In this document: positions 1-46,606 of the stretch, in pieces | How the letters are laid out: every line of letters starts with the position of its first letter | How positions within the stretch are numbered: position 1 is the stretch's first letter | Assembly (NCBI GenBank): GCA_013349495.1 | Contig: DUZK01000001.1 | Coordinates: 1-56,521 of the forward strand | Reading direction: 5' to 3' | DNA length: 56,521 bases | DNA from: Deltaproteobacteria bacterium | GTDB taxonomy: Bacteria; Desulfobacterota; Desulfobacteria; Desulfobacterales; SURF-15 | Notes under the pieces: generated by a model | The model's database searches: none | The model's input: only the letters and a program-made list of their open reading frames with translations | Told to the model about the DNA's origin: nothing | Translations under genes and position numbers: made by a program

Positions 1-2
1 GC

Positions 3-74
3 ATCCGGGCCCTCGGTGTCTATCTTTGCGAGACCCACGGACCGGAACTCAAACGGTATTACCATCAGCTCCGG
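3..74 (+). other. C-terminal helix of an ACP domain whose start lies off-window
   Basis: IRALGVYLCETHGPEL aligns by eye with the ends of ACP1 (LESLAAFLCEAYADSL) and ACP3 (INRLAAYLAETYGGL). A linker and KS1 follow it. Confidence 0.5.
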
Positions 75-3000
75 CCGGAATCGGAAGATAAGGCATCAGA
101 CGCCGGTCCGGTGATCCAGACGGCGGGTTTACACCCGGTGGCCGAACAGCCGGAAGCCGTTTCCCTGCCGGCCGTATCCGAGGAACCGGTGGCCGTCGTC
201 GGCGCCTACGGGATCTTTCCACAATCAGAAGATCTAAGGGCTTTTTGGGACCATCTGGGGGCAAACCGGGACTTGATCACCGAAGTGCCAAAGGATCGGT
301 GGGACTGGAGCGCCTATCACAAGGGGTCGGCAGATGAAAAAACCTATCTGAAATGGGGTGGATTCATTGCCGGTGTCGACCGGTTCGATCCGCTCTTTTT
401 CAATATTTCACCCCGCGACGCCGAGATGATGGACCCCCAGCATCGTCTGTTCATTCAGACCGTCTGGAAAACCGTGGAAGACGCCGGGTACAGCGCCGCA
501 ACCCTGTCCGGACAATCGGTGGGGCTTTTCGTGGGTGTTCAGCACAACGATTATGTGCACCTGCTGGCAAGCCGGGCCGCGGCGCAGACGGCAACCGGAA
601 CCGGACATGCCATGCTGGCCAACCGCGTCTCCTATTTCATGAACTGGCACGGCCCCAGCGAAGCAGTGGACACCGCCTGTTCCAGCAGCCTCGTGGCGCT
701 GCATCGGGCCGTGAGATCGATTCGAAGCGGAGAGAGTCGACTCGCTGTTGCCGGCGGCGTGAGTCTGATGCTTTATCCCGGAACCATGATCGGTGCGGGT
801 GAACTCGGCGTGCTGTCTCCGGACGGACGATGCAAGACCTTCGACCGGAGCGCCAACGGATACGTCAAAGGAGAGGGGGTGGGGGCGGTGCTCTTAAAGC
901 CCCTGAACAAGGCCGTTGCGGACAACGATCACATATATGCGGTCATCAAGGCGACGGCCGTCAATCACGGCGGCAAGGCGAATTCGCTGACGGCTCCCAA
1001 TTCCGACGCCCAGGCCGCCCTTCTGACGGCTGCATACGAGGCGGCAGGGATAGACCCGGACACCGTGACGTATTTGGAACTGCACGGCACCGGCACCGAG
1101 CTGGGTGATCCTGTGGAAGTGGAGGGGATCAAGAAGGCCTTTTCAGATCTGGCCAAACGGACAGGCCGGCCGATCGAGCGAACCCGTTTCTGCGGACTCG
1201 GCGCAGTCAAGACCAACATCGGGCACCTGGAGCCGGCGTCCGGAATCGCCGGGGTGATAAAGGTGCTGCTTTCCATGGCGCACGGCAAACTGCCCGGAAC
1301 CCCGCATTTAAAAGAGTTGAACCCCTATATCGAACTGGAAGATACCCCGTTTTACGTGGTTGAAAAAACGAAACCCTGGAACCGGTTGGAAGACGGCAAC
1401 CGACGGCCGATACCGCGTCGGGCAGGGGTGAGTTCCTTCGGATTCGGCGGCGCCAACGCGCATGTGGTTCTTGAGGAATATCAAGAACCAGTGTTCAGGG
1501 TTCAGAGTTCAGAGTTCAAGGTTAAACCTCAACTTATAGTATTATCGGCCAAGAACGAAGAACGGCTTCTGGATTATGCCAAAGCGTTATTGCGGTTTAT
1601 GGATGAGTCGGCAAGGATGCCGGAGCCGTCCGAAGAGAAGGCATCTCGGGAACAGACCCGGGAAGCGCTCTCAACGCTGGTGGGTGACATTTTTGAGGTG
1701 GCAGCCAAGGATCTGGATCCGGATGAAACCTTTGAGTCCCTAGGGCTGGATCAAGTCGGATCAATCACTTTGGCGGACAAGGTCAATGAGCGATATGCTT
1801 TGACCGTAAACGCGTCCCATTTCATGGAATATTCGTCTATCAACAGACTGACGCAATACATCATCACAAATCACGCATCGCACATCGAGTATCGAGAATC
1901 GAGTATCAAGAATCGAGTATCAAATATCGAGCATCGAGCATCCAGTATCGAGAACATCGCCTTCACCCTCCAGGTCGGACGCGATGCCATGGCCCATCGG
2001 ATGGCCATGGTGGTTTCAGGTTTCAAAGACCTTCAGGGGAAGTTGACGCAATATATCCGGACTCAAAAAGAAGCAGAAGATCTCTTTCTGGGGAACATTA
2101 AAACGGACGAGGCAAAATCCGAAGGCCTGATCGAGGGGAAAGAAGGGAAAGCCTTTGTCGACAGCATCATAAAGGAGCGGAAGCTGAGTAAACTCGCGCG
2201 GCTGTGGGTATCCGGAACAGCCATCGATTGGATGACACTCTATCCCGACGATAAACCGCGACGGGTTTCGTTGCCCACCTACCCCTTTGCCGAAGACCGA
2301 TTTTGGATACCTGAAAAAGCAGGGGGCATGGCGCATGGGGCAGAGGGGAAAAGCAGCGCCGATCGTCTCCATCCGCTACTGGGAAGCAATACCTCGACGC
2401 TGAAAGAACAACAGTATACGACCCTGTTTACGGGGGAAGAGTTTTATCTTACGGATCATGTGGTGGCCGGGCGGAAGACCCTGCCGGGGGTAGCCTATCT
2501 CGAAATGGCCCGGGCTGCCGCCGAGATGGCGGGTGAACCGGGTATGAACCGGTTGTCGAATGTGGTCTGGATCCGCCCCATCGGGGTGACCGATGCGCCG
2601 CAAACGGTCCATATCCGCTTGATGCCCCAGGGGGAGGCCATCGGCTTTTACGTCGTTACCAAAGACGATGCCGGAAAAGACCGGGTCCACGCACAGGGTA
2701 AGATCTCTTCGGTCGGTTCCGATTCAGGCCCAAGGGATCGCCTCGACATTAAAGCCGTCAAGGCAGATTCCAAGGCAACCCTAAATCGGGACGACTGCTA
2801 CCGGATGTTCCGATCGGCAGGCCTTGATTACGGCCCCGGATTCCGAGTGGTCGAAAAAATATTTCTCACCGGGAAAAAAGCGCTGTCCCGGTGGGTGCTT
2901 CCCGAGGCATATCGGGAAAGCCGCGGGATGTTTGTTCTGCACCCGGCCATAATGGACGGGGCGCTCCAGACGGTGTTGGGATTGATGGGGCAAGTCGCAT

Positions 3001-6000
3001 CCGAAACCCCTTATCTCCCCTATACCATCGGAGAAGTGAAATGGTTTAGACCCCTTGGCTATCAGGGGTATGCCCTCGCCGGTTACGCAGGTAATCCGGG
3101 TTCCGGAGAATTGACCTTTGATATCGATCTTTTGGACGAAACCGGGGCGGTGGCGGTCGGTATGAAAGATTTTACCACAAGAGCCGTTAAACAAAAGACG
3201 GCGGCTCCGGTTCGGATCTATTATAAAGCGGAATGGGAAGCGTCGCCCGTCCGGTCCCATCGCGTCGAACCGGCATCACCGATACTGCTGTTCGATACCG
3301 ACACCGAGCGCCGGGATACCCTCAGTGGGCGGTTGAATACCGGCGTCATACTGGTTCTACCGGGTGAGCGGTATGAGCAGCTGGATGAAAAGACCTACAC
3401 GATTTGTCCCGAAGACCGTAAAGGATACCATCAGGTACTGTCTTGCCTGGCTGAAGCGGGACGCCTTCCGGAATGCATCGTTCACCTCTGGTCCCAGGAC
3501 GAATTTTCACCTGATAAACAAGCACTCGATAGACAGCTCGAACGGGGTTTTTATTCGATCTTCCATATCACACAGGCGTTTCTGGATCGGGTGCCGGCCG
3601 AATCCATCCGGCTCCTGTATCTGTTTCGGGAACCGGCCCACGGGGCCCAGCCCCAATACGCGGCCATGGCCGGATTTGTGAAGACGCTCCGTCTGGAACA
3701 CCCGAAACTGGCGTGCCGGACGATCGGCGTCGCCGAATCCATGTCGATGACCGAGGCGGTGATAACAGAGATACGGGGCGACGGCGGTATGGATATCCGG
3801 TATCGGGACAACCTTCGCTGGGAGCGCCGCCTTGAGACATTCGACCTTTTAGCCGATTCTGACGGCGGCGTCGGGCTGAAAGAAAACGGGGTCTACCTGC
3901 TGACCGGCGGTGCCGGCGGGCTCGGGTTGATCTTTGCCGATTTTCTGGCCCGAAAAACAAAGGCCAGACTCGTTTTGACCGGACGATCGGAATTGGATCG
4001 AACGCAAACCCAACGGATCCAAGCGCTGAATGATGCCGGGGCCCGGGTCATCTACATTCCGACGGATATCGCCCATACCGAGGCGGTGGTTCGGTTAAAG
4101 GACCGGATAAAGGCCCGGTTCGGTGAAATCAACGGCATCCTGCACGCGGCGGGCCTGACCCGAGATGCGACCATCGTAAAAAAGAATCCGGATGAAATGG
4201 CACCCATACTGGCCCCCAAGGTTTTCGGTACGGTATGCCTGGATGAGGTCTTTCAATCGGAACCGATCGATTTCTTCATGATGTTTTCATCGGTCGCGGC
4301 CATGATCGGAAACCCGGGCCAGTGCGATTACGCCTTTGCCAACAGCTTTATGGATCATTTTGTTACCCGGCGGGAGGCGCTGCGTAAAGCCGGAAAGCGG
4401 TATGGAAAGACCCTTTCCATCAACTGGCCCCTGTGGCGGGACGGCGGCATGGGGGTGGACCGCCAGACGGAGACCTTCCTAAAAGAGACCCTGGGAATGG
4501 TTTTGCTCGATTCGTCGGAAGGCTGGGAGGCCTTTGAACAGGGGCTCGCCTCCGGTTCGACCCGGTTTATGCTGATCAAGGGACAGCGCCCGAAGCTTGA
4601 AAGATGGATGGCGTACAAACCGGATGCGTCGTCATCGGTTCAAGGGGAAAGCGATGCCCCGGGGTTACGTGAAGCGGCCGGCAGAGCGTTGCGATCGATT
4701 GTCTCTGAGATTTTGAAGATGGATTTCAATGCCATCGATGCGGATGAAGAGATCAGTACTTACGGATTCGACTCCATCAGTTTTACGGAGCTTGCCAACC
4801 GGATCAACGGCAGCTTGGGCCTTGAGGTCACACCGGCGCTCTTTTTCGAATATACGACCCTGGAGAGTCTGGCGGCGTTTCTGTGCGAAGCCTACGCCGA
4901 CTCCCTGGCAGCCCATTTTCAAGGGAGACGTTCGAAATCCCCATCGATTGAAATAAAGAAATCCCCGTCCCAAAGCCGTTTCCGAATACCGGAGCCGGTT
5001 CCGGATGCCCCCCGGACAGCGGGTGAAATGCCGATTGCCGTGATCGGAATGAGTGCCGTGATGCCCGGATCCGAAAATCCGGAGAAATTCTGGCAACACC
5101 TGACAGCCGGTGACGACCTCATCAACGAGGTCCCGGCCGATCGGTGGGACTGGAAATCGTTGTATGGTGACCCTGCTACAGAGCCGAATAAAACCCGTGC
5201 CAAATGGGGCGGGTTCATTGCGGATGTGGATCGTTTCGATCCCCTCTTTTTCGGGATATCGCCGAAAGAAGCGGAACTCATGGATCCCCAGCAGCGGCTC
5301 TTTCTTGAAACCGTATGGAAAACCATTGAAGATGCGGGATACCGGGCAGCCGATGTCGCAGGGACCGATACCGGTCTGTTTGTGGGTGTGGCGGCCAATG
5401 ACTACGCGGAATTGCTGGGTCGTTGCGCTTCCGAGATCGAAGCGCACACCTCCACCGGTATGTCCCATTCCATGCTGCCGAACCGGATCTCCTATCTGCT
5501 GGACCTTCACGGACCCAGCGAACCCATCGATACGGCCTGTTCCAGTTCCCTTGTGGCCATTCATCGGGCTGTCGAGGCGATCCGAAGCGGCACCTGCGAA
5601 ATGGCCATTGCTGGCGGGGTGAACGTGATACTGACCCCCACGGCCACCATATCCTTTGACAAGGCCGGCATGTTGAGCCCGGACGGCCGATGCAAGACCT
5701 TTGATAAACGGGCCGACGGGTACGTGCGGGGGGAAGGCGTGGGAGCCGTAATGCTGAAGCCGATGGACCGCGCAGTGGCGGACGGAGACTGGATATATGC
5801 GGTGATCCGGGGAACCGCTGTAAATCACGGTGGAAAGGCTAACTCACTTACAGCCCCGAACCCCAAGGCTCAGACGAGCCTGATCGTCAAGGCCTATGAA
5901 CGGGCGAAGATCCCGGCCCATACCGTCGGTTACATCGAAGCCCACGGCACTGGCACATCTCTGGGCGATCCCATTGAAATCAATGCCCTGAAAAATGCCT

Positions 6001-9000
6001 TTTCCGCACTCTATGAGAGGGAAAAAAAGCCGATTCCCGAAGCCCCCTGCTGCGGACTGGGATCGGTGAAGACCAATATCGGGCATCTGGAAACCGCAGC
6101 CGGCATTGCCGGTGTCATCAAGGTGCTCCTGGCCTTGAAACACCGGAAACTGCCGCCGAACATCCACTTTGAGGAACTCAATCCCTATATCGAACTGGTC
6201 GGAAGCCCCTTTTTCATTGTCACTGAAAATCGGGACTGGGAGCCGCCCGTGGATGAAAACGGGAACCGGCTGCCCCGTCGGGCGGGGATCAGCTCCTTTG
6301 GTTTCGGCGGCGCCAATGCGCATGTGGTTCTTGAAGAATATCAAGAACCAGAGGTCAGGGGTGAGGGGTCAGAGGGCAGAGGGCATAGTGCAGAGAGCAT
6401 AGGGCAAGGGGGAAACAAAAGGGAGACCTTAGAAGAATCACAGAGGGAGTCGAGTATCGCGTCCCAGCTCATCGTGCTGTCGGCAAAGAATGAGGAACGG
6501 CTAAGAGAATATGCCAAACGAATGGCGGATTTTCTCGAAATTCAACATTCAAAACTAAAAATTAAAAATTTGAGCATAGCGGATATCGCCTATACCCTGC
6601 AGACGGGCCGGGAACCCTTTGAACGGCGGTTGGCTATTGTGGCAACCGATCTTAAAGATGCCGAAAGCAAACTGAAACAATTTGCCCAGGGCTCAGACGC
6701 CGTTGAGGGGCTGTTCCTGGGGCACACCAAAAGCAGTGGGATCCATACCGACTTGTTGACCAAAGGAGCAGCCGGGGAAGCCTTCCTGCAATTATCCATC
6801 GAGAAAAAGGAATTCCATAATCTCGGACAGCTCTGGGTGTCGGGTATCGATATCGACTGGAACCGGCTCCATGAAAACCTCGCTCCCCGGCGTATACCGC
6901 TTCCCACCTACCCTTTTGCCCGGGAACGATACTGGCTGCCGGTAGCAAAAGGCGCGCCTGCTGCGCCGCCTCCGGTGGTTTCTGCACCCCGCAAAAATGA
7001 TCCCAACAGCGCGCCTGTGGGGATCTTCTTTCGGCGCTTCGGTCAGGGGGCAGCCGATATCCCCCTTGAAAAACGGGTGGAAGCGGGCATTCAAGAGATT
7101 GCCGCAGAGATCGTCAAACTCGATGCGGGACGGCTCGATCCAGAAGAAAGCCTGGGGCTCTTCGGGTTCGATTCCATCACCCTTAAACAACTGAGCAATA
7201 AAATCGGCAGGCTGGTTGAGGTGGAGTTGCCGCCGTCCATTTTTTTCGCCCACGGAACCATCCGGGGATTGAGCCGATACCTGGTCGATACCTTTGGGAA
7301 CAAGATTCGGTCGATATATGGTGACGGTGGCGATTTGACTCCTGTCATACCGGGCACCGAAGACGGCGTCGAGCCCGTTGACACCAAGGCGGCATCCATC
7401 AATGACGCGACTCCGCCGGTAATGCCGGATATCCGGATTCCGGAGGCCGGCCGGTATCATGAACAAGATTTTCCGGTGGCCATCATCGGCGCCCACGGCC
7501 TGTTTCCCGAATCGCAAAACCTGACGGAATTCTGGAATCATCTGGAGGCGGCCGACCACCTCATTGGTGAAGTTCCCAAAGACCGGTGGAACTGGCAGGA
7601 TTTCTCCATCGATCCCGAGACCGGCAAAGAGCGGCCCTATGTCAAGTGGGGCGGATTCATCAAGGATGTGGATAAATTCGATCCCGCGTTTTTCAAGATT
7701 TCTCCCCGGGAAGCTGAGATGATGGATCCCCAGCACCGGCTTTTTACCGAAGTCGTGTGGAAGACCATCGAAGATGCGGGATACGATGCAACCGCCCTTT
7801 CCGACCGATTTATCGGAATCTTTGCCGGGTTGCAGTTCAACGATTACCAGCAGATGCTGGTGCGGCAAAGCAGGGGGGACGCCCAGATATCCACTGGAAC
7901 GGCCAACTCCATGTTGACCAATCGTATTTCATTTTTGATGAACTGGCACGGTCCCAGCGAATCGATCGACACGGCCTGTTCCGGCAGCCTGGTCGCCGTT
8001 CATCGGGCCGTCAAATCGATTCAAACCGGTGAGTGCGAGATGGCCGTTGCCGGGGGGGTGAGCCTGATGCTGTCTCCGGCATCCATGATTGGTGCCGGCA
8101 GCCTCGGCGTGCTCTCCCCCAAAGGCCGCTGCAAGGCCTTGGATAAAGATGCGGACGGATATGTCAAAGGTGAAGGGGTGGGGGCGGTTTTTTTGAAACC
8201 GCTTGATCGGGCCATTGCCGATCATGATCATATCTATGCCATAATCAGAGGGTCTGCGGTCAACCATGGCGGCAAGGCCACCTCGTTGACGGCTCCCAGC
8301 AGCGAAGCGCAGGCCGCCCTCCTGTATGCCGCCTATCGGAATGCGGGGATAGAGGCCGATACCGTTACCTTTCTGGAGTTGCACGGAACCGGAACCGAGC
8401 TGGGAGATCCGGTGGAGATCGACGGTATCAAAAAGGCGTTTGCCCATCTCCTGAACGGAAAAACGCCTGTTTCGGAAACCGATCCGTTCTGCGGGATCGG
8501 TTCGGTCAAGACCAATATCGGGCACCTGGAACCGGCGGCCGGTATTGCCGGGTTGTTTAAACTGATGCTCGCCATGGCGCACGGAAAACTTCCGGCGACG
8601 CTTCATTTAAAAGAACTCAACCCATTGATAAAATTGGAACAAACACCTTTTTACGTTGTGGATCAAACAAGGGCCTGGAAACGGCTCACCGACACCCACG
8701 GCAACCCCATCCCCAGGAGGGCCGGGGTCAGCGCCTTCGGGTTCGGCGGGACCAATGCACACATCATTTTGGAAGAATATGAACAAAATGAGGTCAGAGG
8801 TCAGGGGGCAGAGGTCAGGGATGAGCCTCAGCTCATCGTGCTGTCGGCAAAGAATGAGGAGCGCCTCAGGAAGTATGCAGAGGATATGGTCGAATTCATC
8901 GACCGTCAAAAATCGAAAACCCGCCACACGGACGGCGGACAAGTCGAGAATCGAAAACCCGCCACACATACGGCGGGCAAGTCGAGCATCGAGGACATCG

Positions 9001-12000
9001 CTTATACGCTGCAGGCGGGCCGGCAGCCGATGGCGGAACGACTGGCTCTGGTCGCTTCGACCCTTGAAGAATTGGCGTTAAAACTGAAACGCTTTGCCCA
9101 GGGGCATGACACCGTGGATGAACTTCATCGGGGCACCGTCCGGGTCGGTCAGAGCAGAGCAAGCCTTATGGTGGACGACAAAGAAGGGGAGTCGTATATC
9201 CTAAGCCTCATGAAGGGGTGGAAACTGGGCAAGTTGGCGAAGATGTGGGTCAACGGGGTCGATTTCGATTGGGATCTGCTCCATCCGGACAGGCACCCGT
9301 TCCGTGTTTCGCTTCCCACCTATCCCTTTGCCCGGGAGCGGTATTGGCTGCCCCAGGTTTCTGATGACAAGCGATATCAGACCGTTGAAACGCCCATGCC
9401 AGAGACAGAATCGATACCGGGGGCCGCCCCCGGATCACTCTGTTTCGAGCCCGACTGGAAGCTCTCCGCCATCGATATCGAGTCTGAATCGAAATCGCCC
9501 GGCGGCCCGCTGCTGATCCTGGGCGCCGGCGAGGCCGACAGAGACCTGTTAACGGGGCGCCTGAGCGGGGACATGGTTCTGGTTGTTTCCGGCAGTCGAT
9601 TCAGAAAAATCGATCCCCAAACCTATGAAATCGATCCGGCGGATACGGCCGATTATGAACGGCTGTTTCAGGCCCTGCAACAGAAACACGGCGTTCCGAA
9701 AACCGTGGTGCATCTCTGGGCACTCGATTCGAAGGTCGGGAAAATAGATGCGGATATGGAAACCCAACTCCAAAGGGGGGTATATTCGGTTTTCCTTCTG
9801 CTTAAGGCGATCGCCAACAGTCAATCCGACCCGGATACCCGGATCTTTTTCTTTGGCCCCGATGAACCGGTAAACCCGTTTTTCGAGGCGGTATCCGGAT
9901 ATGGCCGGTCCATCCGGTTCGCCATGCCGAAGGTGAATTTCACGACGGTTCAGGTGAGTGAGGCCGGCAAAGACCTGGCCGACATTATCTGTGCGGAAAT
10001 GACCCGCGAATCCGGGGAGGAATTTCCGGAGGTCCGCTACCGAAAGGGGCAAAGATACATACGGTCTTTCCGCCCCATCGCGTTGGGGACCGAAGGAACC
10101 GGTGTTGGGATCAGGCACAAAGGGGTCTATCTGATTACCGGCGGGGCCGGCGGGTTGGGAATGATACTGGCTCGATATTTAAAGGAAACCTACCGGGCCG
10201 TACCGATCCTTACGGGACGCTCTCCCCTGGCAGGGGAGAAGCACGCACGGCTCGAGGAGATTTTCGGGCCGGAAACGGAAGGGATCTATTTTCAAGCCGA
10301 TATCTCAAACCGTGAACAGATGATAGGCGTCATTGAAACGGTTCGGAAACGGTTCGGTCCCCTAAACGGTGTGATTCATGCGGCCGGCGTATCATCCATC
10401 GCTCCGATCCACATGAAGGATGCGGCGGAGTTTGCAGCCACAGTTAAACCGAAAATCCACGGCACTCTGGTGCTCGACAGTGTCACCCGGGAAGAGCCCC
10501 TCGATTTTTTTATGCTTTTCTCCTCCACGTCGGCCCTTTTGGGAGACTTCGGACAGGGCGATTATGCGGTGGCCAATCGATTCCTGGACGGATTTGCCCG
10601 TTACCGGGAAACGCTCAAGGCTCAGGGAGCCCGCCGGGGTCGAACCCTTTCCATCAATTGGCCCCTCTGGCGGGACGGCGGTCTCCATATGAATCCTGAA
10701 ATGGAGACCTTCTACTTTCAGACGTCCGGGATGACCTTTCTGGAGACGGAAACCGGCCTGACCTTTTTCGAGAGGGTGCTCAAAAGCGAGGCGTGCCAGG
10801 CAGGGGTGATTTCAGGCGATCTCGACCGGATAAGTCGATTTTTAGGGATGGACCGAATGGAAAGGGCGCCGGATGAGGCAATGGATGTTGAAAACGTCGG
10901 AACCGGAAACCTCGTTTCGGACCTCCGGCAAATCGCCGCCCGGGTCTTGAAGACCGATGCCGAAAAACTGGATGCGGACGAAAGCCTGGCCGACTTTGGA
11001 TTCGATTCCATCATGCTGAAACTGTTGGCGGATGACCTGAATGCGGTCTATGGCATCGAGGTCTCTCCCTCCCTGTTTTTTGCCCACCCCACCATCAACC
11101 GATTGGCTGCATACCTGGCGGAAACATATGGCGGGCTGGTTAAGCACCCGGAGCCTAAGCCGATGAAAGCGGCCCGACCCGTTTGGAAGGTTGAGGACGA
11201 AGCCGACTTTTCCGCCACGGCCGGAGATACAACCGATTTATCCCATGAACCGATCGCCGTTGTGGGCATGCACGGCGTCTTTCCGGGCTCCCGGAATCTT
11301 AGCGAGTTTTGGAAGCATCTTGAGAACGGAATAAATCTTGTCAGCGAAATTCCAAAAGACCGGTGGGACTGGCGGGACTATTTCGGTGATCCCACCCTTG
11401 ATCCGGGCAAGACCGATTCCAAGTGGGGCGGGTTCATCACCGATATGGACAAATTCGATCCCCGGTTTTTCAAGATCTCCCCTCGGGAAGCCGAAATGAT
11501 GGATCCCCAGCACCGGCTCTTTATCGAAACCGTCTGGAAGGCGGTGGAAGACGCCGGCATTCGGGCGTCTTCATTATCCGGGGCCATTGTGGGGGTCTTT
11601 GCCGGGCTGCAATTCAAGGATTACGAGCAGTTGATGGCCAAAGGGAACCAAAGCAACGCCTATTCGGGAACCGGGATCGCCATGGCCATGCTGGCCAACC
11701 GGGTGTCCTATCTGATGAACTGGCATGGCCCCAGCGAGACCATCGACACGGCCTGTTCCAGCAGCTTGGTTGCAGTCAACCGGGCGGTCAAATCGCTGCG
11801 CAACCGGGAGTGCGATATGGCCGTTGCCGGAGGCGTGAGTCTGCTCCTGTCCCCATTGACTCTTATCGGGGCGAGTCAACTCGGTGTGTTGTCTCCGGAC
11901 GGGCGATGCAGAACCCTCGATAAGCGGGCCAACGGGTACGTTAAGGGAGAAGGGGTGGGGGCGGTGCTGTTGAAACCGCTGAGCCGGGCCATGGCCGACG

Positions 12001-14075: not shown

Positions 14076-14079
14076 GGCC

Positions 14080-20000: not shown

Positions 20001-23000
20001 CAGCTTTATGGATAACTTTTCTGTGTGGCGGGAGAAATTGCGGTTAGAGAAAAGACGATTTGGGAAGACGCTTTCCATAAACTGGCCGTTGTGGCAAGAC
20101 GGCGGAATGAGTATTGACCATAGGGCGGAAAAACTTCTGATACATGCGGCTGGAATTCGGCTTCTTAAAACACCTGACGGATTGGAAGCATTTTTCAGGG
20201 CTTTGGCCATGAAATTCAGCCAACTGACGGTGATAGACGGTATTCGCCGAAAAGTACGAGGTTTAGTTGTCGGCGACGGCCTTCGACGTCACGAATCCGA
20301 AGATATCGCCTCCCACTCGGTCGCACGCAAGGTTGAAGGAAAGCTGCTTCAAAATCTTCGTGAAGGATTGTTAAAAATGGCATCGGAGATCCTGAAAATC
20401 GAGGAGTCGGCCATCGATTTGGATGAAGATCTTAGTGCTTACGGTTTTGAGTCCATCACCTTCACTGAATTGGCGAATTGTATCAACGAGAAGTACAAAC
20501 TTGAAATTACGCCCACACTATTTTTCGAATACCCTTCGCTCCGATCGATCTCGCAATTCCTGTGTGAAACATATCAAAACAATATCTCAGAGGACTTTAG
20601 GAATGACGCTTCATTCATTTCACGTTCTGAATCCGATGAAGATACAGTTTTCGTCGAACCGATACAGAGAAACCGATTTCAAGTCCCCCATGACTCTGTG
20701 TACAAGCATCCATTGCCGGTTAATGTCCCGATAGCGATCATAGGAATGAGCGGCGTGATGCCCCAATCCGAAAATCTTGAGATCTTCTGGCAGCATCTTT
20801 ATAGAGGAAACGATCTGATCACGGAAGTGCCCAGGCATCGCTGGGATTGGGAAGCTTGGCATGACCATACGGCGGAAGAAGATATCAAGGCCATGGCCAA
20901 ATGGGGTGGTTTTATACCGGATGTGGATAAGTTCGATCCTCTGTTTTTTGGAATTTTACCCAGAGAAGCAGAACTGATGGATCCTCAACAACGACTCTTT
21001 TTGCAAACGGTATGGAATACCATAGAGGATGCCGGATATAAAATATCGACGCTTTCAGGCACCAATACCGGCGTATTCGTCGGAGTGGCTTCAAGTGATT
21101 ATGCCGAGATAATCCGTCAAAACGTTTCTAAGGTAGACCCCTATACATCAACCGGAATGGCGCATTCTGTTTTGGCAAATCGTATTTCCTATCTGCTCAA
21201 TCTGCATGGACCGAGTGAACCGATCGATACGGCTTGTTCCAGCTCTCTGGTCGCAATTCACCGAGCAGTGGAAGCCATCCACAGTGGAAGTTGTGAAATG
21301 GCCATAGCCGGGGGGGTCAATGCCATTTTAACCCCAACGTTGAATATATCCTTTGGAAGTGCCGGCATGCTGAGTAAAGACGGCCGTTGTAAGACATTCG
21401 ATAAACATGCGGATGGTTATGTCCGAGGTGAAGGGGTGGGGGCAGTGCTGCTGAAACCCTTGAACCGCGCTCAGACTGACGGTGACCATATTTATGGAGT
21501 GATTATCGGGACAGCCGTAAATCACGGAGGCCACGCCGCTTCGCTGACCGCTCCCAATCCGAAGGCGTTAGCTCAATTACTTATTCATGCATATAAAAGA
21601 GCGAATATCAAGATGGATACCGTAAGTTACATCGAAGCCCATGGAACAGGCACTGCTCTTGGGGACCCCATAGAAATCGACGGACTCAAACGTGCTTATG
21701 CTGAGTTGTGTAATGGCGAAGGAAAATCCCCAACCGTTCCCGCGCATTGCGGTCTGGGGTCGGTAAAGACAAATATCGGTCATTTGGAAACAGCAGCAGG
21801 TATCGCGGGTGTAATTAAAGTCCTGCTGTCGATGAAGCACAGGAAGCTTCCTCCCAGCATCAATTTCAAAGAACTCAATCCGTATATCCAACTTGAAGAC
21901 AGCCCATTTTACATTGTTACGGCTGCCCGCAATTGGGAACAATTGAGAGAAGATATCGGTCGTCCGATTCCGCGCCGCGCAGGGGTGAGTTCCTTCGGGT
22001 TCGGAGGAGCCAATGCGCATATTGTTTTGGAAGAATATGAAGAACCAGAGGTCAGCGGTCAGGGGTCAAGGGTCAGGGGTGAGCCGCAACTCATTGTAAT
22101 GTCGGCTAAAAACGAAGATAGACTTTATGCCTATGTAGAAAAGATGTTGGAATACCTGGACCAGGGGATGGACGTATCAGCTCCATCGGGTAAGGATGCA
22201 CCCCGTGAAGCAGTTTTTAAAAAAGTGTTGATTCTCATCGCTGATATCTTAAGGGTGGGGGAAGAGGATATCAATCCGGAGGAGCCTTTCGAAGAATACG
22301 GATTTGATCAAATCGGATTGACGGGTTTGGCAGAAAAGATAAGCGAAAGGTATTCATTAAACATCACTTCTTCCTTATTCACGGAATATTCGTCAATCAG
22401 CAAGTTGGCACAATACCTTACCCAGCATCGAGCATCAAGTCTAGAGCATCAAGCATCCAACGCTACCGATCTTTCTCTTTCCGATCTCGCATATACCCTG
22501 CAGGTAGGTCGGGATGCCATGGAAGAGCGGCTGGCTGTTGTGGTTTCAGACCTGGAGGAGCTTAAAGAAAAGCTAAAACGATTTTCAAACGGTGAACACG
22601 ATTATGAGGATTTCATTCGCGGCAATGCGAAGGCAATCAAAAGTAAATCCGATACTCTCGATCAAGGCAGTGCCGGAAGAGAATCTGTTCCCATCTTAAT
22701 TAAAGACCGTGAGCTCGGCAAACTCGGTCAGTTATGGGTTAACGGTTTCGATATCGACTGGACATTACTGTATCCGAAACAACAGCCTCAGCGCATATCC
22801 ATTCCCACATATCCCTTTGCAAAAAAGCGGTATTGGGTTCCAGAAAGGCAAGCGACTAAGGTAAAGCCACAAGTGGTGGATGAAACGGGTGGAATGAAGC
22901 AGATTCAAAAGCCCGCTGTTCTGGTTTTTCAACCGATATGGGAAAAAACGAGAATAGAATCGGCTCAACCGATTGCCCGAAACATACTTCTATTTGACAC

Positions 23001-25683: not shown

Positions 25684-25689
25684 CCCTTT

Positions 25690-27498
25690 ATGAGGAAGTT
25701 GATTATGAATGGCACAACAACGTCTCGTTCGGAAGATAAGACCCTTCGCCGGATTTATATTGGACACGCCAACACATTTCACGATCCGTCGATCGCCATT
25801 ATAGAAGGTGACCAGATTTTTGCAGAGGGGATCGAGCGGCACATCCAGTGCAAGCGTGCCTGGGAAAACCTCCGGCTATGGTATTCCTGGCGTGCCGTTC
25901 GTAAAGCCTTGAATGACCTGGGACTTTGGCCGGTAAAGGATGCGGATGTGGTCAGCGTCACCAGTTGGGATTACGACCTGCTAAAGGAAGTGGTAGAAAA
26001 CCGATTGGTGGAGTTTGACGGCCCTGGCGGTGTCTGCATGTTGTCGCATCATATGGAGATGGAACCGATATTCAATAACCAACTGGCATGGATTCTTCGG
26101 TCCTATCCGGCCAATTTCAGCGACCAGCCCCATGAACTGGCTCCCGAGATGTTTCAGGATTCGCACAATATTTCCATTCAGATAAAGATGACCAACCACC
26201 ACCTGGCCCATGCGGCCACTGCCGTCTACACCTCTCCCTTTGACGAGTGTATGGTGATGATTATCGACGGCTATGGGGAATGGACCACCAACAGCTTTTA
26301 TCATTTTCATGACAACCGGTTCGATCTGATCCATCAGCAGGGTATACACAGCCTGGGGTTAATGTATTCCTCTATCACCGAAATTTGTGGATTCAGCAGT
26401 CTGGAGGGGGAAGAATGGAAAATCATGGGGCTTGCCGCCTATGGGGCATTTAATAATGATATTTACCAATTCTTCAATGAGCGCATCGTCTTCGACGGCC
26501 TGAGCTTTGAGATCATATACGACCCGGAAATCTACTTTAAAACGCTCATGTCGCTGATCGGCGGAATGCGGCATCCGGATGATCCGGATGTCATGAAGAT
26601 CGCCGATCTGGCCCATTGCTTCCAGCGCTTTTTCGAAGAAACGGTGGTCAAGCTGGCTAAGGCAGCCGGAGATTTGTGCCTTTCAAAGAATCTGGCCTAT
26701 GCCGGCGGATGCGCACTCAACTCTTCCGCCAACGGGAAGATACTGGAGAACACGAATTTCGAACGGCTCCATATTCCCAGTGCTCCGGCCGATGACGGCT
26801 GCTCGCTCGGGGCCGCCTTTTACGAGAAATACGCCGCCCAAAAGGATGGGAATAGGTCTGTTGCGGTGATGTCGCCCTACCTGGGCAGCATGATCGATAT
26901 TGAGCGGCTGGAAAAGATTCTGTCATTTAAAGGCATCAAATACCGCCACCTGTCGGATGAGAATGAATTGTGTGAGGAGGTGGCGATTCTGCTTGACGCG
27001 GGCAATATTGTGGGCTGGATACAGGGAAGGGCGGAATTCGGCCCCCGGGCGTTGGGCAACCGATCCATTATCGCAGATCCCAGACCGGCGGATATGAAGG
27101 ATCGGATCAACAGCCGGGTGAAATTCCGGGAAGACTACCGGCCGCTGGCCCCCTCTATTCTCCATGAGTTCGGAGATGAATATTTCGAAGGCTATCAGGA
27201 AAGCCCCTATATGGAGCGCACCCTGAATTTCCGTGATGCGGTCAAAGACAAGGTGCCGGCCGTGGTCCATAAGAACGGGACCGGACGACTTCAGACCGTC
27301 AGAGAGGAGTGGAATCCCCGCTATTATCGATTGATTCACGCTTTTTACGAAAAAACCGGCATACCTCTGGTATTGAACACCTCCTATAATGTCATGGGCA
27401 AGCCGATTGCTCACAGTGTTGAGGATGCCATCACCGTGTTCTTCACCACCGGGTTGGATTATCTTGTGATCGGCAACTACATCTTGATGAAAGGATAG
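25690..27498 (+). CDS. Carbamoyltransferase (NodU/CmcH family)
   Basis: Signature blocks: HHLAHAATAVYTSPF, GRAEFGPRALGNRSIIADPR, KFREDYRPLAPS, VHKNGTGRLQTV, LVLNTSYNVMGKPI. The ATG at 25705 has GAGGAAG 6 nt upstream and may be the real start. The gene begins 6 nt after the PKS stop. Confidence 0.9.
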   Translation: MRKLIMNGTTTSRSEDKTLRRIYIGHANTFHDPSIAIIEGDQIFAEGIERHIQCKRAWENLRLWYSWRAVRKALNDLGLWPVKDADVVSVTSWDYDLLKEVVENRLVEFDGPGGVCMLSHHMEMEPIFNNQLAWILRSYPANFSDQPHELAPEMFQDSHNISIQIKMTNHHLAHAATAVYTSPFDECMVMIIDGYGEWTTNSFYHFHDNRFDLIHQQGIHSLGLMYSSITEICGFSSLEGEEWKIMGLAAYGAFNNDIYQFFNERIVFDGLSFEIIYDPEIYFKTLMSLIGGMRHPDDPDVMKIADLAHCFQRFFEETVVKLAKAAGDLCLSKNLAYAGGCALNSSANGKILENTNFERLHIPSAPADDGCSLGAAFYEKYAAQKDGNRSVAVMSPYLGSMIDIERLEKILSFKGIKYRHLSDENELCEEVAILLDAGNIVGWIQGRAEFGPRALGNRSIIADPRPADMKDRINSRVKFREDYRPLAPSILHEFGDEYFEGYQESPYMERTLNFRDAVKDKVPAVVHKNGTGRLQTVREEWNPRYYRLIHAFYEKTGIPLVLNTSYNVMGKPIAHSVEDAITVFFTTGLDYLVIGNYILMKG

Positions 27499-27503
27499 GT
27501 AGC

Positions 27504-28784
27504 GTGAAAATAGCACTCATCACAATGGGGACCTGGGGAGATGTGATGCCGTTTCTGGCATTGGCCCGGGGGTTGGAAAAGGCCGGTTATGACATCACTT
27601 TTGCCACGGTGATGGATTTTGAAGACCGGGTTCGGGAACTTGGCTTTGCCTATGTGCCCATTCATTTCAGTTTTCACGAATATGTGCATTCCGATGAGTG
27701 CAAGGCCTCCCTTGCCGGCAGTATCACGGCGACCCGACGGCATCAGAAGAATTTTTTCAGAAAACGGCGGCAGATGCTCGAAGACGCCTGGAAAGCAGCC
27801 CGGGGGGCCGAAGCGATCATTTTCAACCCGGTGGCGTTTCCGGCCTACCACATGGCCGAGAAACTGAAGATTCCCTGTATCATGACCTCGAGTACCCCCT
27901 GTTTGTCACCGACCCGAGCGTTTCCTTATATGTTTGTGACCTCGAATCATCTGGGCGGTTTCTTAAACCGGTTGACATACGAGTTTCATCGGCTGGGCAC
28001 CAACAGCGAGCGTAAAATCGTATCTCAGTGGTGTCGGGAAACGCTGGACACGAACCCCCCTCGACCGTTTATGAATTATCTCCGGATGAATGGACGTCGC
28101 GTTCCGATCTTATATTTATACAGTCCCAAAATGGTACCGAGTCCTTCAGACTGGCCGAAAACGACCCTGGCAAGCCATTATTGGTACCTGGATCAAGAGA
28201 GCCGATGGCAGCCGCCGGCCGGGTTGGAAGCGTTTCTTTTCCGGGGACCGGCACCCGTCTACGTGGGGTTCGGGAGTATGGTGGGAACAGATCCTGAAGC
28301 GATGACCCGGATTGTGGTCTCAGCCCTTGAAACATCCGGAGAACGGGGAGTCATCTGTACCGGATCGGGAGCCATGGCCAAACCGAATAAGCCGCCGGAA
28401 ACACTCTACTTCATAGATTCCATTCCCCATGACTGGATATTCCCGCGGGTCAAGGCGGTGGTTCATCATGCCGGCGCCGGTACGGTCTGGTCCGGTCTTC
28501 GATACGGCAAACCGACGCTGGCCTGCCCCATCGCCGTGGACCAATGGTTCTGGGCCAGACGCATCCATCAACTTGGGGTGGGGCCCCCTCATCTGTCCCA
28601 AAGACCCTTGAAGAAGTTTACCGCAGACAAACTGGCACAAGGCATTCAGACCATGGTGGACGACAAAGCGATGCAGCAACGGGCAGAGGCCTTGGGAAAG
28701 GAATTGGAAAAGGAAGACGGGGAAGGGAAGGCGGTTGAATTTATCAATCGTCAAATCGAAACCTGGCAGAATTATTTAACTTGA
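27504..28784 (+). CDS. Family-1 glycosyltransferase (MGT/UDP-glycosyltransferase type)
   Basis: N-terminal block MKIALITMGTWGDVMPFLALARGLEKAGYDITFAT. C-terminal nucleotide-sugar block HHAGAGTVWSGLRYGKPTLACPIAVDQWFWA. GTG start. Confidence 0.85.
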   Translation: MKIALITMGTWGDVMPFLALARGLEKAGYDITFATVMDFEDRVRELGFAYVPIHFSFHEYVHSDECKASLAGSITATRRHQKNFFRKRRQMLEDAWKAARGAEAIIFNPVAFPAYHMAEKLKIPCIMTSSTPCLSPTRAFPYMFVTSNHLGGFLNRLTYEFHRLGTNSERKIVSQWCRETLDTNPPRPFMNYLRMNGRRVPILYLYSPKMVPSPSDWPKTTLASHYWYLDQESRWQPPAGLEAFLFRGPAPVYVGFGSMVGTDPEAMTRIVVSALETSGERGVICTGSGAMAKPNKPPETLYFIDSIPHDWIFPRVKAVVHHAGAGTVWSGLRYGKPTLACPIAVDQWFWARRIHQLGVGPPHLSQRPLKKFTADKLAQGIQTMVDDKAMQQRAEALGKELEKEDGEGKAVEFINRQIETWQNYLT

Positions 28785-29608
28785 AACTCTTTGCGCTCAG
28801 CGATCTTCATCTCGATTACAAAATCAATCACGATGCCCTGGCGGCGATTCCGGAATATCCCGATGACTGGCTGGTTTTAGGGGGTGATATCTGCACCGGT
28901 TATGAAGATCTTCGGTATGCACTGACGATCCTCTCCAAACGGTTTTCCCGCCTGCTCTGGGTTCCCGGCAACCATGATCTCTGGTCCCGAATCGGCGGCA
29001 TCCGGGGAAAGGGGGAGGAGAAGTATTGGAAACTGATCGGAATCTGCCGGGAATTCGGCGTCTTAACACCAGAAGACCCGTATCCCTTATGGAACGGGGA
29101 AGGGGGTGCGCATTACCTGGTTCCCCTTTTTCTGCTCTATGACTACAGTTTCAGACCCGGTCACATCCCCACGGAACAGGCCGTGGAATGGGCCAATGAG
29201 AGCGGGATCATGTGCACGGACGAGTATCTGCTGGATCCTTCGCCCCATGAATCCCGTATCGCCTGGTGCCATGAGCGCTGTGAGTATTCTGAGGAACGGA
29301 TCAGGAAAATCTCGGGGGAGACACCCCTTGTCCTGATCAATCATTTTCCTTTGAGAGAGGATCTTGTCAGGCTGGTTCGTATACCGCGGTTTTCGATCTG
29401 GTGCGGAACCCGCAGGACCGAATCCTGGCACATGCAGTTCAATGCATCGGTGGTCATATCCGGGCATTTGCACATACGGAGCACGAATTACAGAGCCGAC
29501 GTCCGGTTTGAAGAAGTCTCTCTGGGATATCCGAAAAACTGGAACCAGCGACGCGGGATAGCTCATTATCTGCGTCAAATATTACCGTCACCCGATCCCA
29601 GGTATTGA
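28781..29608 (+). CDS. Calcineurin-like metallophosphoesterase
   Basis: Metal-ligand blocks SDLHLD, GGDI, VPGNHDLW, INHFP, SGHLH. The TTG start overlaps the GT stop (TTGA, 28781-28784). Confidence 0.8.
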   Translation: MKLFALSDLHLDYKINHDALAAIPEYPDDWLVLGGDICTGYEDLRYALTILSKRFSRLLWVPGNHDLWSRIGGIRGKGEEKYWKLIGICREFGVLTPEDPYPLWNGEGGAHYLVPLFLLYDYSFRPGHIPTEQAVEWANESGIMCTDEYLLDPSPHESRIAWCHERCEYSEERIRKISGETPLVLINHFPLREDLVRLVRIPRFSIWCGTRRTESWHMQFNASVVISGHLHIRSTNYRADVRFEEVSLGYPKNWNQRRGIAHYLRQILPSPDPRY

Positions 29609-29609
29609 T

Positions 29610-30362
29610 ATGGTCAATAAGACTCAGGAGTTTAGAATTGGATTTGATACCGGAAACAGATCACAAGAGCCCCTCGCGCTTGTGTTCCCGAGCGGATTGA
29701 AGACGGTTGCCGATCTCATGCCCGCCTTTCACCAACTCTTCGATCGGATCATTGCTTTGGAAGTAAATGGTAAGCCGATTACCTGCGGTCCGGAGTGCGG
29801 AACCTGCTGTCGGCAATTGGTTCCAATTTCCCTGCCTGAAGCGTTTTATCTCAAATCCATACTGAACGAGCTGAAACCGAAGAGATGTAAACGGGTCAAA
29901 CACCGGATTGCGGCAATCCTGGAAAAGGTAAAAGATGCAGGGCTTCTTTCAGCTGTCTTGAATCCCAGGGAGAACATGGAGGTGGATACCGCGTATTTTA
30001 AACTCGGGTTGCCCTGCCCCTTTTTGGAGGAGAATTCATGCAGCATTCACCCGTTTCGGCCCCTGGCTTGCAGGGAATACCTGGTCACATCGGATAAGCA
30101 GTACTGTCGTAACCCCCATGGCGATGAAGTGAACCGGATCCGGATCAAGCGAAACATGGCCGCAATGCTGGCGGTCTTTGCCTCCGGGCTATATCAGGTA
30201 CCCAAGGCGCCGATTCCGCTGTTTTATTTTATGGTGTATTCCGAAAAGATTGAAAGACCGGGCCAGCTGAAATGGCCGGCCCGATCGATTCTCGATAGAT
30301 TTCTAAGTGGTCTGGTGAAGTTAAATGACGAGAACCTGCAGATTTCCATTCAGGATACTTGA
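29610..30362 (+). CDS. YkgJ/UPF0153-family cysteine-cluster protein (putative Zn/Fe-chelating domain; family includes flagellin N-methylase FliB)
   Basis: TCGPECGTCCRQLVPI and CPFLEENSCSIHPFRPLACREY match the CxxCxxCC ... CxFL..C.I...RP..CR pattern of this family. Confidence 0.75.
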   Translation: MVNKTQEFRIGFDTGNRSQEPLALVFPSGLKTVADLMPAFHQLFDRIIALEVNGKPITCGPECGTCCRQLVPISLPEAFYLKSILNELKPKRCKRVKHRIAAILEKVKDAGLLSAVLNPRENMEVDTAYFKLGLPCPFLEENSCSIHPFRPLACREYLVTSDKQYCRNPHGDEVNRIRIKRNMAAMLAVFASGLYQVPKAPIPLFYFMVYSEKIERPGQLKWPARSILDRFLSGLVKLNDENLQISIQDT

Positions 30363-30374
30363 GATACTCAGACC

Positions 30375-32447: not shown

Positions 32448-32516
32448 TATGGGTTCGGACAGGATAACAGAAGATTTAGAATTAATGAATATTCATTACA
32501 TATTTCGGTAAAAGCC

Positions 32517-33311
32517 ATGCAACATATGGGGAGCAAACTAAATTTAAAAACGAATGAAATCCATCTGTGGTTTGCGTTTCCGGATGAAATTCGGGACCCG
32601 AATCTGCTTTCTGAATATAAGAAACTGCTTACTCCGGAAGAGGGGAAAAAACAGCAGCGATTCTACTTTGAAAAACATCGCCATCAATATCTGGTGACCC
32701 GTGCCCTGGTTCGAACAACGCTTTCCCGGTACACGGGCATTCCGGTTTCCGATCTCAGATTTGATCGAAACAAATACGGCAGACCGGAGCTCGTGGTCGT
32801 TCCCAAAGACTTTCCCATTCGGTTCAATCTGTCTCATACAGACGGACTCATTGCCTGTGCAGTTGTGCTGAATCAGGACATAGGGGTGGATGTTGAAGAC
32901 ATGACGCGCAGGGAGATATCCCTTGAAACTGCGGATCGTTTTTTTTCCAAAACCGAGGTTCGTGATCTCCATCAAGTGCTTGAGAGCAAAAAACGAGATC
33001 GATTCTTTGAATATTGGACGCTTAAGGAGTCGTATATTAAAGCGCGGGGCATGGGATTGTCCTTACCGTTGGAACAATTCAGCTTTCACCTATCGGAAAA
33101 TGAATCGCTGAGAATTTCTTTTGATCCAAGGTTGTCCGATGATCCGGATCGCTGGCGGTTTTGGCTGCTGAAACCCACCGGGCGTCACAAAGCAGCAGTT
33201 GCAATTTGTGGAGAAAACCGGGGCGCCTATGAATTAACGATTCGGAAAGCGGTTCCGTTGTCGGCAGCGGAAGATTTCCCATGCGCCATTGTAAAACACT
33301 CGGATATATGA
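32517..33311 (+). CDS. Sfp-type 4'-phosphopantetheinyl transferase
   Basis: RFNLSHTDGLIACAV, IGVDVEDM, FFEYWTLKESYIKARG. Confidence 0.9.
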   Translation: MQHMGSKLNLKTNEIHLWFAFPDEIRDPNLLSEYKKLLTPEEGKKQQRFYFEKHRHQYLVTRALVRTTLSRYTGIPVSDLRFDRNKYGRPELVVVPKDFPIRFNLSHTDGLIACAVVLNQDIGVDVEDMTRREISLETADRFFSKTEVRDLHQVLESKKRDRFFEYWTLKESYIKARGMGLSLPLEQFSFHLSENESLRISFDPRLSDDPDRWRFWLLKPTGRHKAAVAICGENRGAYELTIRKAVPLSAAEDFPCAIVKHSDI

Positions 33312-33370: not shown

Positions 33371-33399
33371 TTGACACATATTATCAATTTGCCTACATT
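33371..33399 (+). promoter_or_regulatory. Candidate sigma70-type promoter for the 33497 gene
   Basis: TTGACA (33371-33376), a 17-nt spacer, then TACATT (33394-33399), in an AT-rich gap about 100 nt upstream of the ATG. This is a pattern match only. Confidence 0.25.
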
Positions 33400-37051: not shown

Positions 37052-37052
37052 A

Positions 37053-46131: not shown

Positions 46132-46185
46132 ACTTGATACCCTCTAAAATGAAACACTCCCGGGTAACAGTGGCGCATTGATCGC

Positions 46186-46602: not shown

Positions 46603-46606
46603 GAGT

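Follow-up and report, generated by a model that had tools for sequence, protein, structure and literature searches.

The 56,521-bp contig DUZK01000001.1, analysed here over its whole length (hereafter, the window), belongs to a metagenome-assembled genome (MAG) that carries a third-party annotation and the label 'Deltaproteobacteria bacterium' (window proteins HIJ54487-HIJ54504). Between nt 3 and 33311 it harbors two genes for a polyketide synthase (PKS) of the trans-AT type, i.e., without integrated acyltransferase (AT) domains, followed by six accessory genes. The question raised by this locus is which pathway these genes serve and, in particular, whether those lying downstream of the PKS genes represent a tailoring set for its product. 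The whole of the data indicates that the region is probably the 3' part of an orphan trans-AT PKS cluster followed by a composite downstream operon. Calling of open reading frames (ORFs) disclosed eight co-directional and tightly packed ORFs on the + strand:

3..14075, + strand: pksA, 4,690 aa, without start codon (5'-truncated); from the ORF, Pfam, the phmmer domain map and motifs
14080..25683, + strand: pksB (HIJ54487), 3,867 aa; from the ORF, Pfam, phmmer and motifs
25690..27498, + strand: g3, O-carbamoyltransferase (HIJ54488); from Pfam and PDB matches
27504..28784, + strand: g4, GT1 (GT-B) glycosyltransferase; from Pfam and PDB matches
28781..29608, + strand: g5, PptH-family metallophosphoesterase, putative phosphopantetheinyl hydrolase; from the match to PDB 6UNC
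29610..30362, + strand: g6, cysteine-cluster protein of the YkgJ/CxxCxxCC family; from Pfam PF03692
30375..32447, + strand: g7, tandem methyltransferase resembling the protein arginine methyltransferases (PRMTs) PRMT7 and PRMT9; from Pfam, PDB, AlphaFold2 (AF2) and Foldseek
32517..33311, + strand: g8, Sfp/HetI-type 4'-phosphopantetheinyl transferase (PPTase); from Pfam and NCBIfam

The window being the entire contig, its left edge is the contig end, and pksA is therefore cut there; its frame runs open into this end, as had been maintained in an earlier sequence-only reading of the same DNA. A second, independent ENA assembly contains the same locus and begins about 1.9 kb further in. The sequence-only reading had counted ten genes in this region; eight ORFs were found instead, and the NCBI numbers from PksB to the PPTase (HIJ54487-HIJ54493) account for seven genes, to which PksA has to be added. 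The spacings it had given (from a 4-nt overlap to a 12-nt gap, with 69 nt before the PPTase) match the ORF coordinates exactly, the intergenic distances from pksB on being 6, 5, -4, 1 and 12 nt, then 69 nt ahead of g8, with the start of g5 overlapping the end of g4 by 4 nt. Such short spacings (-4 to 12 nt) suggest that the genes might be co-transcribed. The names assigned to the downstream genes also agree with the Pfam, NCBIfam and PDB identities obtained here.

As far as the assembly line is concerned, Pfam and a phmmer self-search gave the order [ACP tail]-KS1-psiACP-DH-KR(B)-ACP-KS2-ACP-KS3-KR(A)-ACP-KS4-DH for PksA and KR(B)-ACP-KS5-DH-KR(B)-ACP-KS6-psiACP-KR(A)-ACP-TE for PksB, where KS, DH, KR, ACP and TE stand for ketosynthase, dehydratase, ketoreductase, acyl carrier protein and thioesterase, respectively, and psiACP for an ACP-like insert described below. 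The totals over the two proteins (six KS, three DH, five KR, six Ser-bearing ACP and one TE) reproduce those counted previously; the tail of one more ACP, at the extreme left edge of the window, had been overlooked. One module is split between the two proteins, with KS-DH in PksA and KR-ACP in PksB, and module 2 consists of KS-ACP alone. All six KS carry the DTACS, HGTGT and NIGH motifs (Cys-His-His), the DH domains keep HxxxGxxxxP, YGP and DxxxQ intact, and the TE (nt 24853-25629) contains the motif GHSLG, which is the sole GHSxG among the 8,557 residues and, as already recognized, belongs to the TE nucleophile. Neither the two PKS proteins nor any other ORF of the window gave a match to the Acyl_transf_1, enoylreductase (ER) or methyltransferase (MT) families, in line with the earlier claim that AT, ER and MT domains are missing. 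After each of the six KS there is a flanking subdomain (matches to RhiE-like_linker and CurL-like_PKS_C) and one of six [LI]PTYPFA motifs; the interval from the KS to LPTYPF is 214-321 aa overall and therefore leaves no room for an AT. Moreover, the KS regions align to solved trans-AT KS structures. All this supports the view, also put forward by the sequence-only reading, that PksA and PksB form an AT-less (trans-AT type) modular PKS whose 5' end is cut.

The reductive domains allow a prediction of the product. KR1, KR4 and KR5, which are the partners of DH domains, have the B-type Asp, whereas KR3 and KR6, belonging to KR-only modules, are without it and can be classified as A-type. In a comparison among the window's own six KS, those located downstream of a DH-KR module (KS2, KS5 and KS6) share 71-74% mutual identity, versus 58-63% with KS1, KS3 and KS4. 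The sequence clades of trans-AT KS track the chemistry of the incoming intermediate, and the grouping observed here is internally consistent, being the pattern expected if the KS sequence follows the incoming substrate. If the assembly line is colinear, the last six elongating modules would make ...CH=CH-CO-CH2-CH(OH)-CH2-CH=CH-CH=CH-CH(OH)-CH2-CO-S-ACP, that is, C12=C13, a keto group at C11, C9-OH, C6=C7, C4=C5 and C3-OH, after which the C-terminal TE would release the chain. The double bonds would be E, as suggested by the B-type KRs, and the malonyl units would come from a free-standing AT encoded off the contig. The order already proposed for this tail (C=C, keto, OH, C=C in the split module, C=C, OH) fits the DH motifs, the KR types and the KS grouping, and appears to be a reasonable reading.

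Two of the six modules contain an additional element that had been overlooked so far:

1686..1862, + strand: psiACP-1 (PksA aa 562-620), after KS1; GLDQV; phmmer E 7.5e-8 to ACP3
22237..22419, + strand: psiACP-2 (PksB aa 2720-2780), after KS6; GFDQI

In both inserts, the alignment reveals that Gln replaces the phosphopantetheine-accepting Ser of GxDS, so that they lack the conserved Ser of a genuine ACP. psiACP-1 is an ACP-like four-helix domain that splits the KS1 flanking subdomain into two halves: residues 438-537 and 649-770 of PksA have aligned counterparts in the solved trans-AT KS structures, which leave out residues 538-648, corresponding to a 111-residue insert. Similarly, the distance from KS6 to LPTYPF is 312 aa, versus 214-243 aa in the modules without insert. 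In 6-deoxyerythronolide B synthase (DEBS), the AT sits between the same two halves of the flanking subdomain; on the basis of these alignments, the psiACP inserts occupy the AT position of cis-AT PKSs. Of the 140 KS in a (biased) sample of related trans-AT PKS proteins from metagenomes, 9 had an insert of this kind, which was always Ser-less, and a literature search for Ser-less ACP inserts in KS flanking subdomains retrieved nothing relevant. A pseudo-ACP at the AT site is a docking-element candidate that lends itself to testing and would be of use in PKS engineering.

Concerning the orphan status of the cluster, the search of the first 1,100 aa of PksA against 5.8 billion proteins gave nothing above 57% identity and mostly matches of KS length only, and in the genome and metagenome scans no longer homologous locus extending the cluster leftwards was found. 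In the literature, no published pathway was found to match in searches for trans-AT clusters with arginine methyltransferase or with carbamoyl and glycosyl transfer, for Desulfobacter, for pateamine/Mycale and for palmerolide. The earlier designation of the cluster as orphan is thus supported, but not proven, by these comparisons. It is quite likely that we are dealing with a real, truncated trans-AT PKS cluster of an ordinary, antibiotic-type kind from an under-explored lineage (Desulfobacterales-type MAGs).

The accessory genes do not form a homogeneous set. The only plain tailoring candidates are probably g3 and g4. The g3 product matches the Pfam families Carbam_trans_N (E 2e-37) and Carbam_trans_C (E 1e-67), with Kae1-like and YrdC-like domains, and, in the PDB, NovN (1e-65), TobZ (1e-63) and GdmN (3e-58), but it falls below the NCBIfam equivalog cut-offs. 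The closest solved relative of g4 is the sterol 3-beta-glucosyltransferase UGT51 (PDB 5GL5/5XVM, E 4e-55, full length), and the NCBIfam families of macrolide glycosyltransferases match below cut-off. These two enzymes would carbamoylate and glycosylate a hydroxyl, and the carbamate may sit on the sugar. Of the carbamoylated, glycosylated and methylated product expected by the sequence-only reading, the first two decorations are therefore plausible predictions, while the third, as discussed below, is a guess.

A different function is suggested for g5, which had been listed as a metallophosphoesterase among the tailoring enzymes. Besides the Pfam Metallophos family, it matches PDB 6UNC (phmmer E 1.1e-77, residues 3-272, 117/269 identical, i.e., 43%) and keeps the equivalents of the PptH active-site residues C225, H246 and H248. 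A literature search for the code 6UNC retrieved no paper; that the structure is Mycobacterium tuberculosis PptH was deduced from a 3-residue chain offset that reproduces the published residue numbers (PMC8557913). PptH (Rv2795c), whose gene is a neighbour of that of PptT (Rv2794c), strips holo-carrier proteins of their phosphopantetheine (PMC8557913). On the basis of these similarities, g5 is a PptH homologue and a putative phosphopantetheinyl hydrolase. PptH has been described as limited to mycobacteria (PMC8557913); since homologues are numerous across phyla (7,989 matches to the g5 family at E<=1e-20, many of them 58-78% identical), this claim is too narrow. A PPTase gene accompanies the PptH homologue in the window operon, in the cassettes of two other loci described below (L006 and L172) and in loci without PKS genes: in L169 (a Desulfobacterales MAG; 8001-9517), the coding sequences of the g5 homologue and of an Sfp-type PPTase share 4 nt and no PKS is found within 8 kb, and in L167/L168 (another metagenomic lineage; L167 8001-10359), the PPTase lies 750 nt downstream and no PKS genes are nearby. 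The g5 homologues of L169 and L167 are 64-70% identical to g5. In L170/L171 (Parabeggiatoa), there is no PPTase within 8 kb of the homologue. Sfp-type PPTases thus accompany the homologues in the majority of the other genomes examined. The PPTase of the window, g8, has the two-lobed ACPS fold (Pfam AASDHPPT_N and ACPS, E 9e-12 and 3e-19), matches NCBIfam HetI (1.7e-41) below the equivalog cut-off, and is 81% identical to the PPTase of L172 and 65% to that of L006. Together, g5 and g8 would form an 'unprime/prime' pair servicing carrier proteins.

The analysis of related loci revealed that several of these genes recur together. The closest relative of the window in this respect is the Desulfobacteraceae MAG L006, where the order is CT(3' end)-GT-GT2-PptH-[YkgJ remnant]-PRMT-like-PPTase (CT, carbamoyltransferase; GT, glycosyltransferase), with 59-88% identity to the window genes; L089 repeats the PRMT-PPTase end of L006. 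In a third lineage, represented by L172-L174 (L172 3-7671), the order is GT(60%)-PptH(78%)-YkgJ(64%)-[C-A-T-TE]-PPTase(81%), where a stand-alone module of nonribosomal peptide synthetase (NRPS) replaces the PRMT-like gene; in L172, this module is 1,344 aa long and its C domain has HQIILDE instead of HHxxxDG. Because they are conserved in the window, in L006 and in L172-L174 with a differing X, the genes g4-g5-g6-[X]-g8, where X is either the PRMT-like gene or the NRPS module, appear to travel as a unit whose neighbours are not restricted to PKS genes. The YkgJ protein and the PRMT-like methyltransferase would occupy the variable slot of this cassette. The g6 product matches Pfam PF03692 (E 2.6e-6), without any match in NCBIfam or in the PDB, and its orthologue in L172 is 64% identical. 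Between the PptH and PRMT-like genes of L006 there is an ORF of 84 aa (3722-3976), which keeps the CGDCARCC motif and whose C-terminus, LNDETLQMTF, resembles the LNDENLQISI of g6; from these features, the ORF is a decayed YkgJ gene, and g6 would therefore be dispensable in that relative.

The product of g7 matches Pfam PRMT_C and, in the PDB, PRMT9 (7e-40) and PRMT7 (1e-28). Its AF2 model (pLDDT 87.9, pTM 0.87) aligns in Foldseek with mouse PRMT7 4C4A (E 2e-40, 678 columns, TM 0.63/0.67), PRMT9 being the next match. The protein consists of two PRMT modules (Rossmann plus beta-barrel) in a single polypeptide. The C-terminal one carries LDIGTGTGLLAMMA, SETVDHSLLGE and AWQQA, corresponding to motif I, the double-E loop and the THW-like loop, respectively, and the N-terminal one a degenerate S-adenosylmethionine (SAM) motif (LHMGIGAPF). 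Residues E435, E444, W573 and Q575 are invariant in 15 aligned bacterial sequences of the family, the THW-like motif being AWxQ. PKS-linked members of the family are those of the window, of L006/L089, of L002 (directly after a PKS-TE gene) and of L064; in L003, the gene lies near genes for enoyl-CoA hydratase (ECH) and KR. In L064/L088 (7984-12052), from a Kiritimatiellae MAG of the Mycale hentscheli metagenome, the PRMT-like gene is 42% identical and stands beside a KS pseudogene spread over several frames of the opposite strand. PRMT7/9-like tandem methyltransferases thus form a small bacterial family, whose association with PKS genes extends to at least three lineages. The best guess is that g7 N-methylates a guanidino or amino group, either on the product or on a protein. 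The 'methylated polyketide' of the sequence-only reading is accordingly a guess: the double-E loop is guanidino-recognising and the family occurs also in non-PKS contexts.

Two further gene associations were observed around members of this family. In L004 (7933-12040) and L163 (8291-11938), an AAA_21/AAA_15 ATPase, a protein of 178-196 aa and the PRMT-like gene make up a conserved trio in unrelated, non-PKS loci, with the PRMT-like gene coming directly after the other two. In L002 (12119-12949) and L003 (12068-12817), the PRMT-like gene is followed by a gene for a protein of 249-276 aa, with 83% mutual identity and no Pfam match; these proteins were checked as possible homologues of YkgJ or of the metallophosphoesterase and turned out to be unrelated to g5 or g6.

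The composition of the region is not uniform either, and the relevant features are:

17360..17440, + strand: mosaic junction inside pksB (GC3 scans and Tandem Repeats Finder, TRF)
1877-1954, 6373-6410, 8911-8992, 12569-12599, 12679-12708 and 17403-17440: tandem repeats (TRF)

The GC content at third codon positions (GC3) falls from 0.68-0.77 upstream of the junction to 0.37-0.45 downstream of it, the drop taking about 60 nt (17,360-17,420) directly after the KS5 core (..AHIVLEEYQ). The low-GC3 block extends to the end of pksB, and the values are higher again in g3-g7 (0.55-0.64); the L006 cassette is GC-rich and resembles the high-GC block of the window. The step looks like a recombination-type mosaic, i.e., a module-exchange junction. 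At the break there is a heptanucleotide array (AGCGTTC/GTTCAGx, 5.4 copies, 17403-17440). All the tandem repeats of the window fall within PKS coding sequence, most of them with a 7-nt unit, and five of the six arrays are located at two fixed loops of the KS flanking subdomains, after ..VLEEYQxE and before NIA[YF]TLQVGR. GTTCAGG (x4.4) and AACTCGA (x4.3) are perfectly repeated, ATCGAGT is present in about 10 copies, and one array has a 38-nt unit. Since 7 nt is not a multiple of three, copy-number slippage would shift the frame.

How the downstream genes relate to the PKS can be explained in different ways. The proposal that g3 to g7 all tailor the released polyene-polyol, by carbamoyl, glycosyl, phosphoester, YkgJ and methyl steps, would account for the single tight block of genes in one direction, with the PKS at one end and its PPTase at the other, and for the PRMT-like gene directly following a PKS-TE gene in L002, and has a precedent in palmerolide, where a CT and a GT lie beside a trans-AT PKS. 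It is, however, doubtful: g5 is a PptH homologue, whose relatives adjoin PPTases without any PKS, g6 has decayed in L006 while the rest was kept, an NRPS module stands in place of g7 in L172, and g7 itself has PRMT substrate-arginine motifs. The uniform tailoring set of the sequence-only reading thus gives way to a composite one, in which the cassette recurs elsewhere beside an NRPS module in place of a PKS. Other observations weigh against our own interpretation of the region as a PKS cluster with its operon. In L173, the cassette has neither PKS nor CT directly upstream, the gene upstream of the GT being on the opposite strand, and the cassette may thus act in a separate pathway. Since the 4-nt overlap between GT and PptH genes is conserved in the window and in L172-L174, the metallophosphoesterase g5 could act with the GT and not with the PPTase. 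PRMT-like relatives stand in non-PKS contexts in L004/5, L161/2, L163, L164 and L165. Module 2 (KS-ACP) may be reduced by a trans-acting KR, because KS3 falls together with KS4, whose upstream module is of the beta-OH type. Lastly, the window contains neither a trans-AT gene nor the loading end, and therefore does not allow the pathway to be reconstructed.

If the first of these points is taken further, GT-PptH-YkgJ-X-PPTase would be an independent portable pathway (leading, for example, to a glycosylated carrier-protein-derived metabolite), with the PKS product being at most carbamoylated. In addition to the L173 arrangement and the conserved overlap, L172-L174 carry their own C-A-T-TE NRPS module and GC3 differs between the blocks of the window; nevertheless, the cassette follows the CT without gap in the window and in L006, no carrier protein is encoded besides those of the PKS, and the distances of 5-6 nt to pksB and g3 speak for a single transcript, which makes this explanation rather unlikely. 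It is possible, though not probable, that g7, perhaps with the YkgJ protein, is a protein-modifying or self-protection factor that methylates an arginine in the synthase or in some target of the host. The intact double-E and THW-like loops and the PRMT7/9 fold would fit this role, as would the family members without neighbouring PKS genes, two of which are preceded by genes for an AAA_21 ATPase and a small protein; on the other side, there are the PKS genes or remnants linked to the family in the window, L006/L089, L002 and L064, together with ECH and KR in L003, and no candidate target is encoded nearby. Finally, the sharp GC3 step inside pksB, the coding-sequence heptanucleotide repeats with their risk of frameshift and the IS21-like element found elsewhere in the contig might be taken as signs of a non-functional cluster, either an assembly chimera or a decaying, pseudogenised island. 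This is very improbable, in that no interruption occurs in the 8,557 codons of the two PKS frames, every catalytic motif is preserved, the independent ENA assembly has an identical PksB of 3,867 aa crossing the junction, and the GC3 step falls at a KS/linker boundary, where module exchange would be expected.

The interpretation preferred here remains that of a truncated orphan trans-AT PKS cluster with a composite downstream operon, which adds the readable six-module tail of an orphan trans-AT PKS. A more far-reaching possibility, which we advance tentatively and consider rather improbable as a whole, is that the operon contains an undescribed portable cassette for 'carrier-protein service and decoration', in which PptH would serve in editing, reset or release, a bacterial PRMT would take part and the psiACPs would act as docking sites. 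Were this true, a type of hydrolase (PptH) hitherto known only in the primary lipid metabolism of mycobacteria would be integral to a PKS/NRPS; g7 would be the first bacterial PRMT in secondary metabolism, its target for N-methylation being an arginine in the synthase or a guanidino group carried by the product; and the Ser-less domains would recruit trans-acting enzymes to modules 1 and 6. Even apart from it, PptH homologues can form part of biosynthetic cassettes, and their frequent pairing with Sfp-type PPTases suggests that cells commonly couple priming with un-priming of carrier proteins. Experimental follow-up would be worthwhile for this pairing, for the PRMT7/9-like enzyme and for the pseudo-ACP in the AT position.

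As regards the surroundings, g8 is the right border of the cluster, since no synteny with L006/L089 exists beyond it and the best promoter-like site lies just downstream of it (33371-33399); across the scanned region, promoter- and terminator-like sites are no commoner than in shuffled controls, and the tRNA and Rfam scans gave nothing above chance. Converging on the cluster from the - strand (34692-39620) are genes for a 519-aa protein without family match, a GNAT-like acetyltransferase and an unusually long (855-aa) transporter of the major facilitator superfamily (MFS); these could be export or resistance genes, yet they show no synteny in the relatives. A partner-switching set follows (40907-46939), composed of a dCache-HAMP-SpoIIE phosphatase (40907-42847), a HATPase_c_2 anti-sigma-type kinase (46186-46602) and a STAS protein (46607-46939), whose genes flank that of a 1,096-aa TLC-transporter/HEAT/cNMP-binding fusion protein. 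Near the right contig end, a mobile-element-like block on the - strand (52017-55628) contains an IstB_IS21 ATPase (52525-53307), a 498-aa helix-turn-helix (HTH) protein at the IstA position, a CHC2 zinc-finger protein and a KorB-like protein.

The comparison with known systems places the PKS among the typical trans-AT assembly lines. Like bacillaene PksJ/PksL and the Brevibacillus bimodule (PDB 7ZMA), it has KS domains followed by the flanking subdomain and LPTYPF without AT, a module split as KS-DH and KR-ACP, a KS-ACP module, a terminal TE, and KS sequence groups apparently following the type of the upstream module. Unlike them, its best relative is only 57% identical, and two of its modules have at the AT position a Ser-less ACP-like insert, absent from all the solved trans-AT KS structures compared. 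Palmerolide is similar in that its trans-AT line comes with the carbamoyltransferase PalQ, the glycosyltransferase PalP and a PPTase. The pal trans-AT PKS-NRPS cluster of Candidatus Synoicihabitans palmerolidicus also includes an HCS cassette, C-methyltransferases and NRPS modules, and palmerolide A has an OH at C-10 and a carbamate at C-11 (PMC8739492); the same paper cites kalimantacin as having a carbamoyltransferase. PptH, YkgJ and PRMT-like genes, which are present in the window, have not been reported in the pal cluster. Palmerolide was considered as the product and discarded, since the terminal modules (C3-OH, 4,6-diene, C9-OH, C11 keto) do not fit it. Pateamine was likewise set aside, its N-methylation being assigned in the Mycale papers to an N-methyltransferase domain within an NRPS module.

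For the accessory enzymes, the likeness to characterized proteins is of different degree. Both Carbam_trans domains of TobZ, NovN, GdmN, NodU and NolO are found in g3 (E 1e-58 to 1e-65), although it misses the NCBIfam equivalog cut-offs; g4 shares full-length GT-B homology with UGT51, OleD and GtfB, but no sterol pathway exists at its locus. With the eukaryotic PRMT7 and PRMT9 (4C4A, 6PDM), g7 has in common the tandem modules arranged as a pseudo-dimer, one of them with intact motifs; it differs in being bacterial, adjoining PKS genes and being only 15-21% identical, and its intact-motif module is the C-terminal one, which aligns to the N-terminal module of PRMT9. Lastly, as in the PptH/PptT pair of M. 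tuberculosis, to whose hydrolase it is 43% identical with the Cys/His/His residues kept, g5 shares its operon with a PPTase; in the window, however, the host is a Gram-negative deltaproteobacterium, and the gene is embedded in a secondary-metabolite cassette, coupled to a glycosyltransferase by a 4-nt overlap and two genes away from the PPTase.

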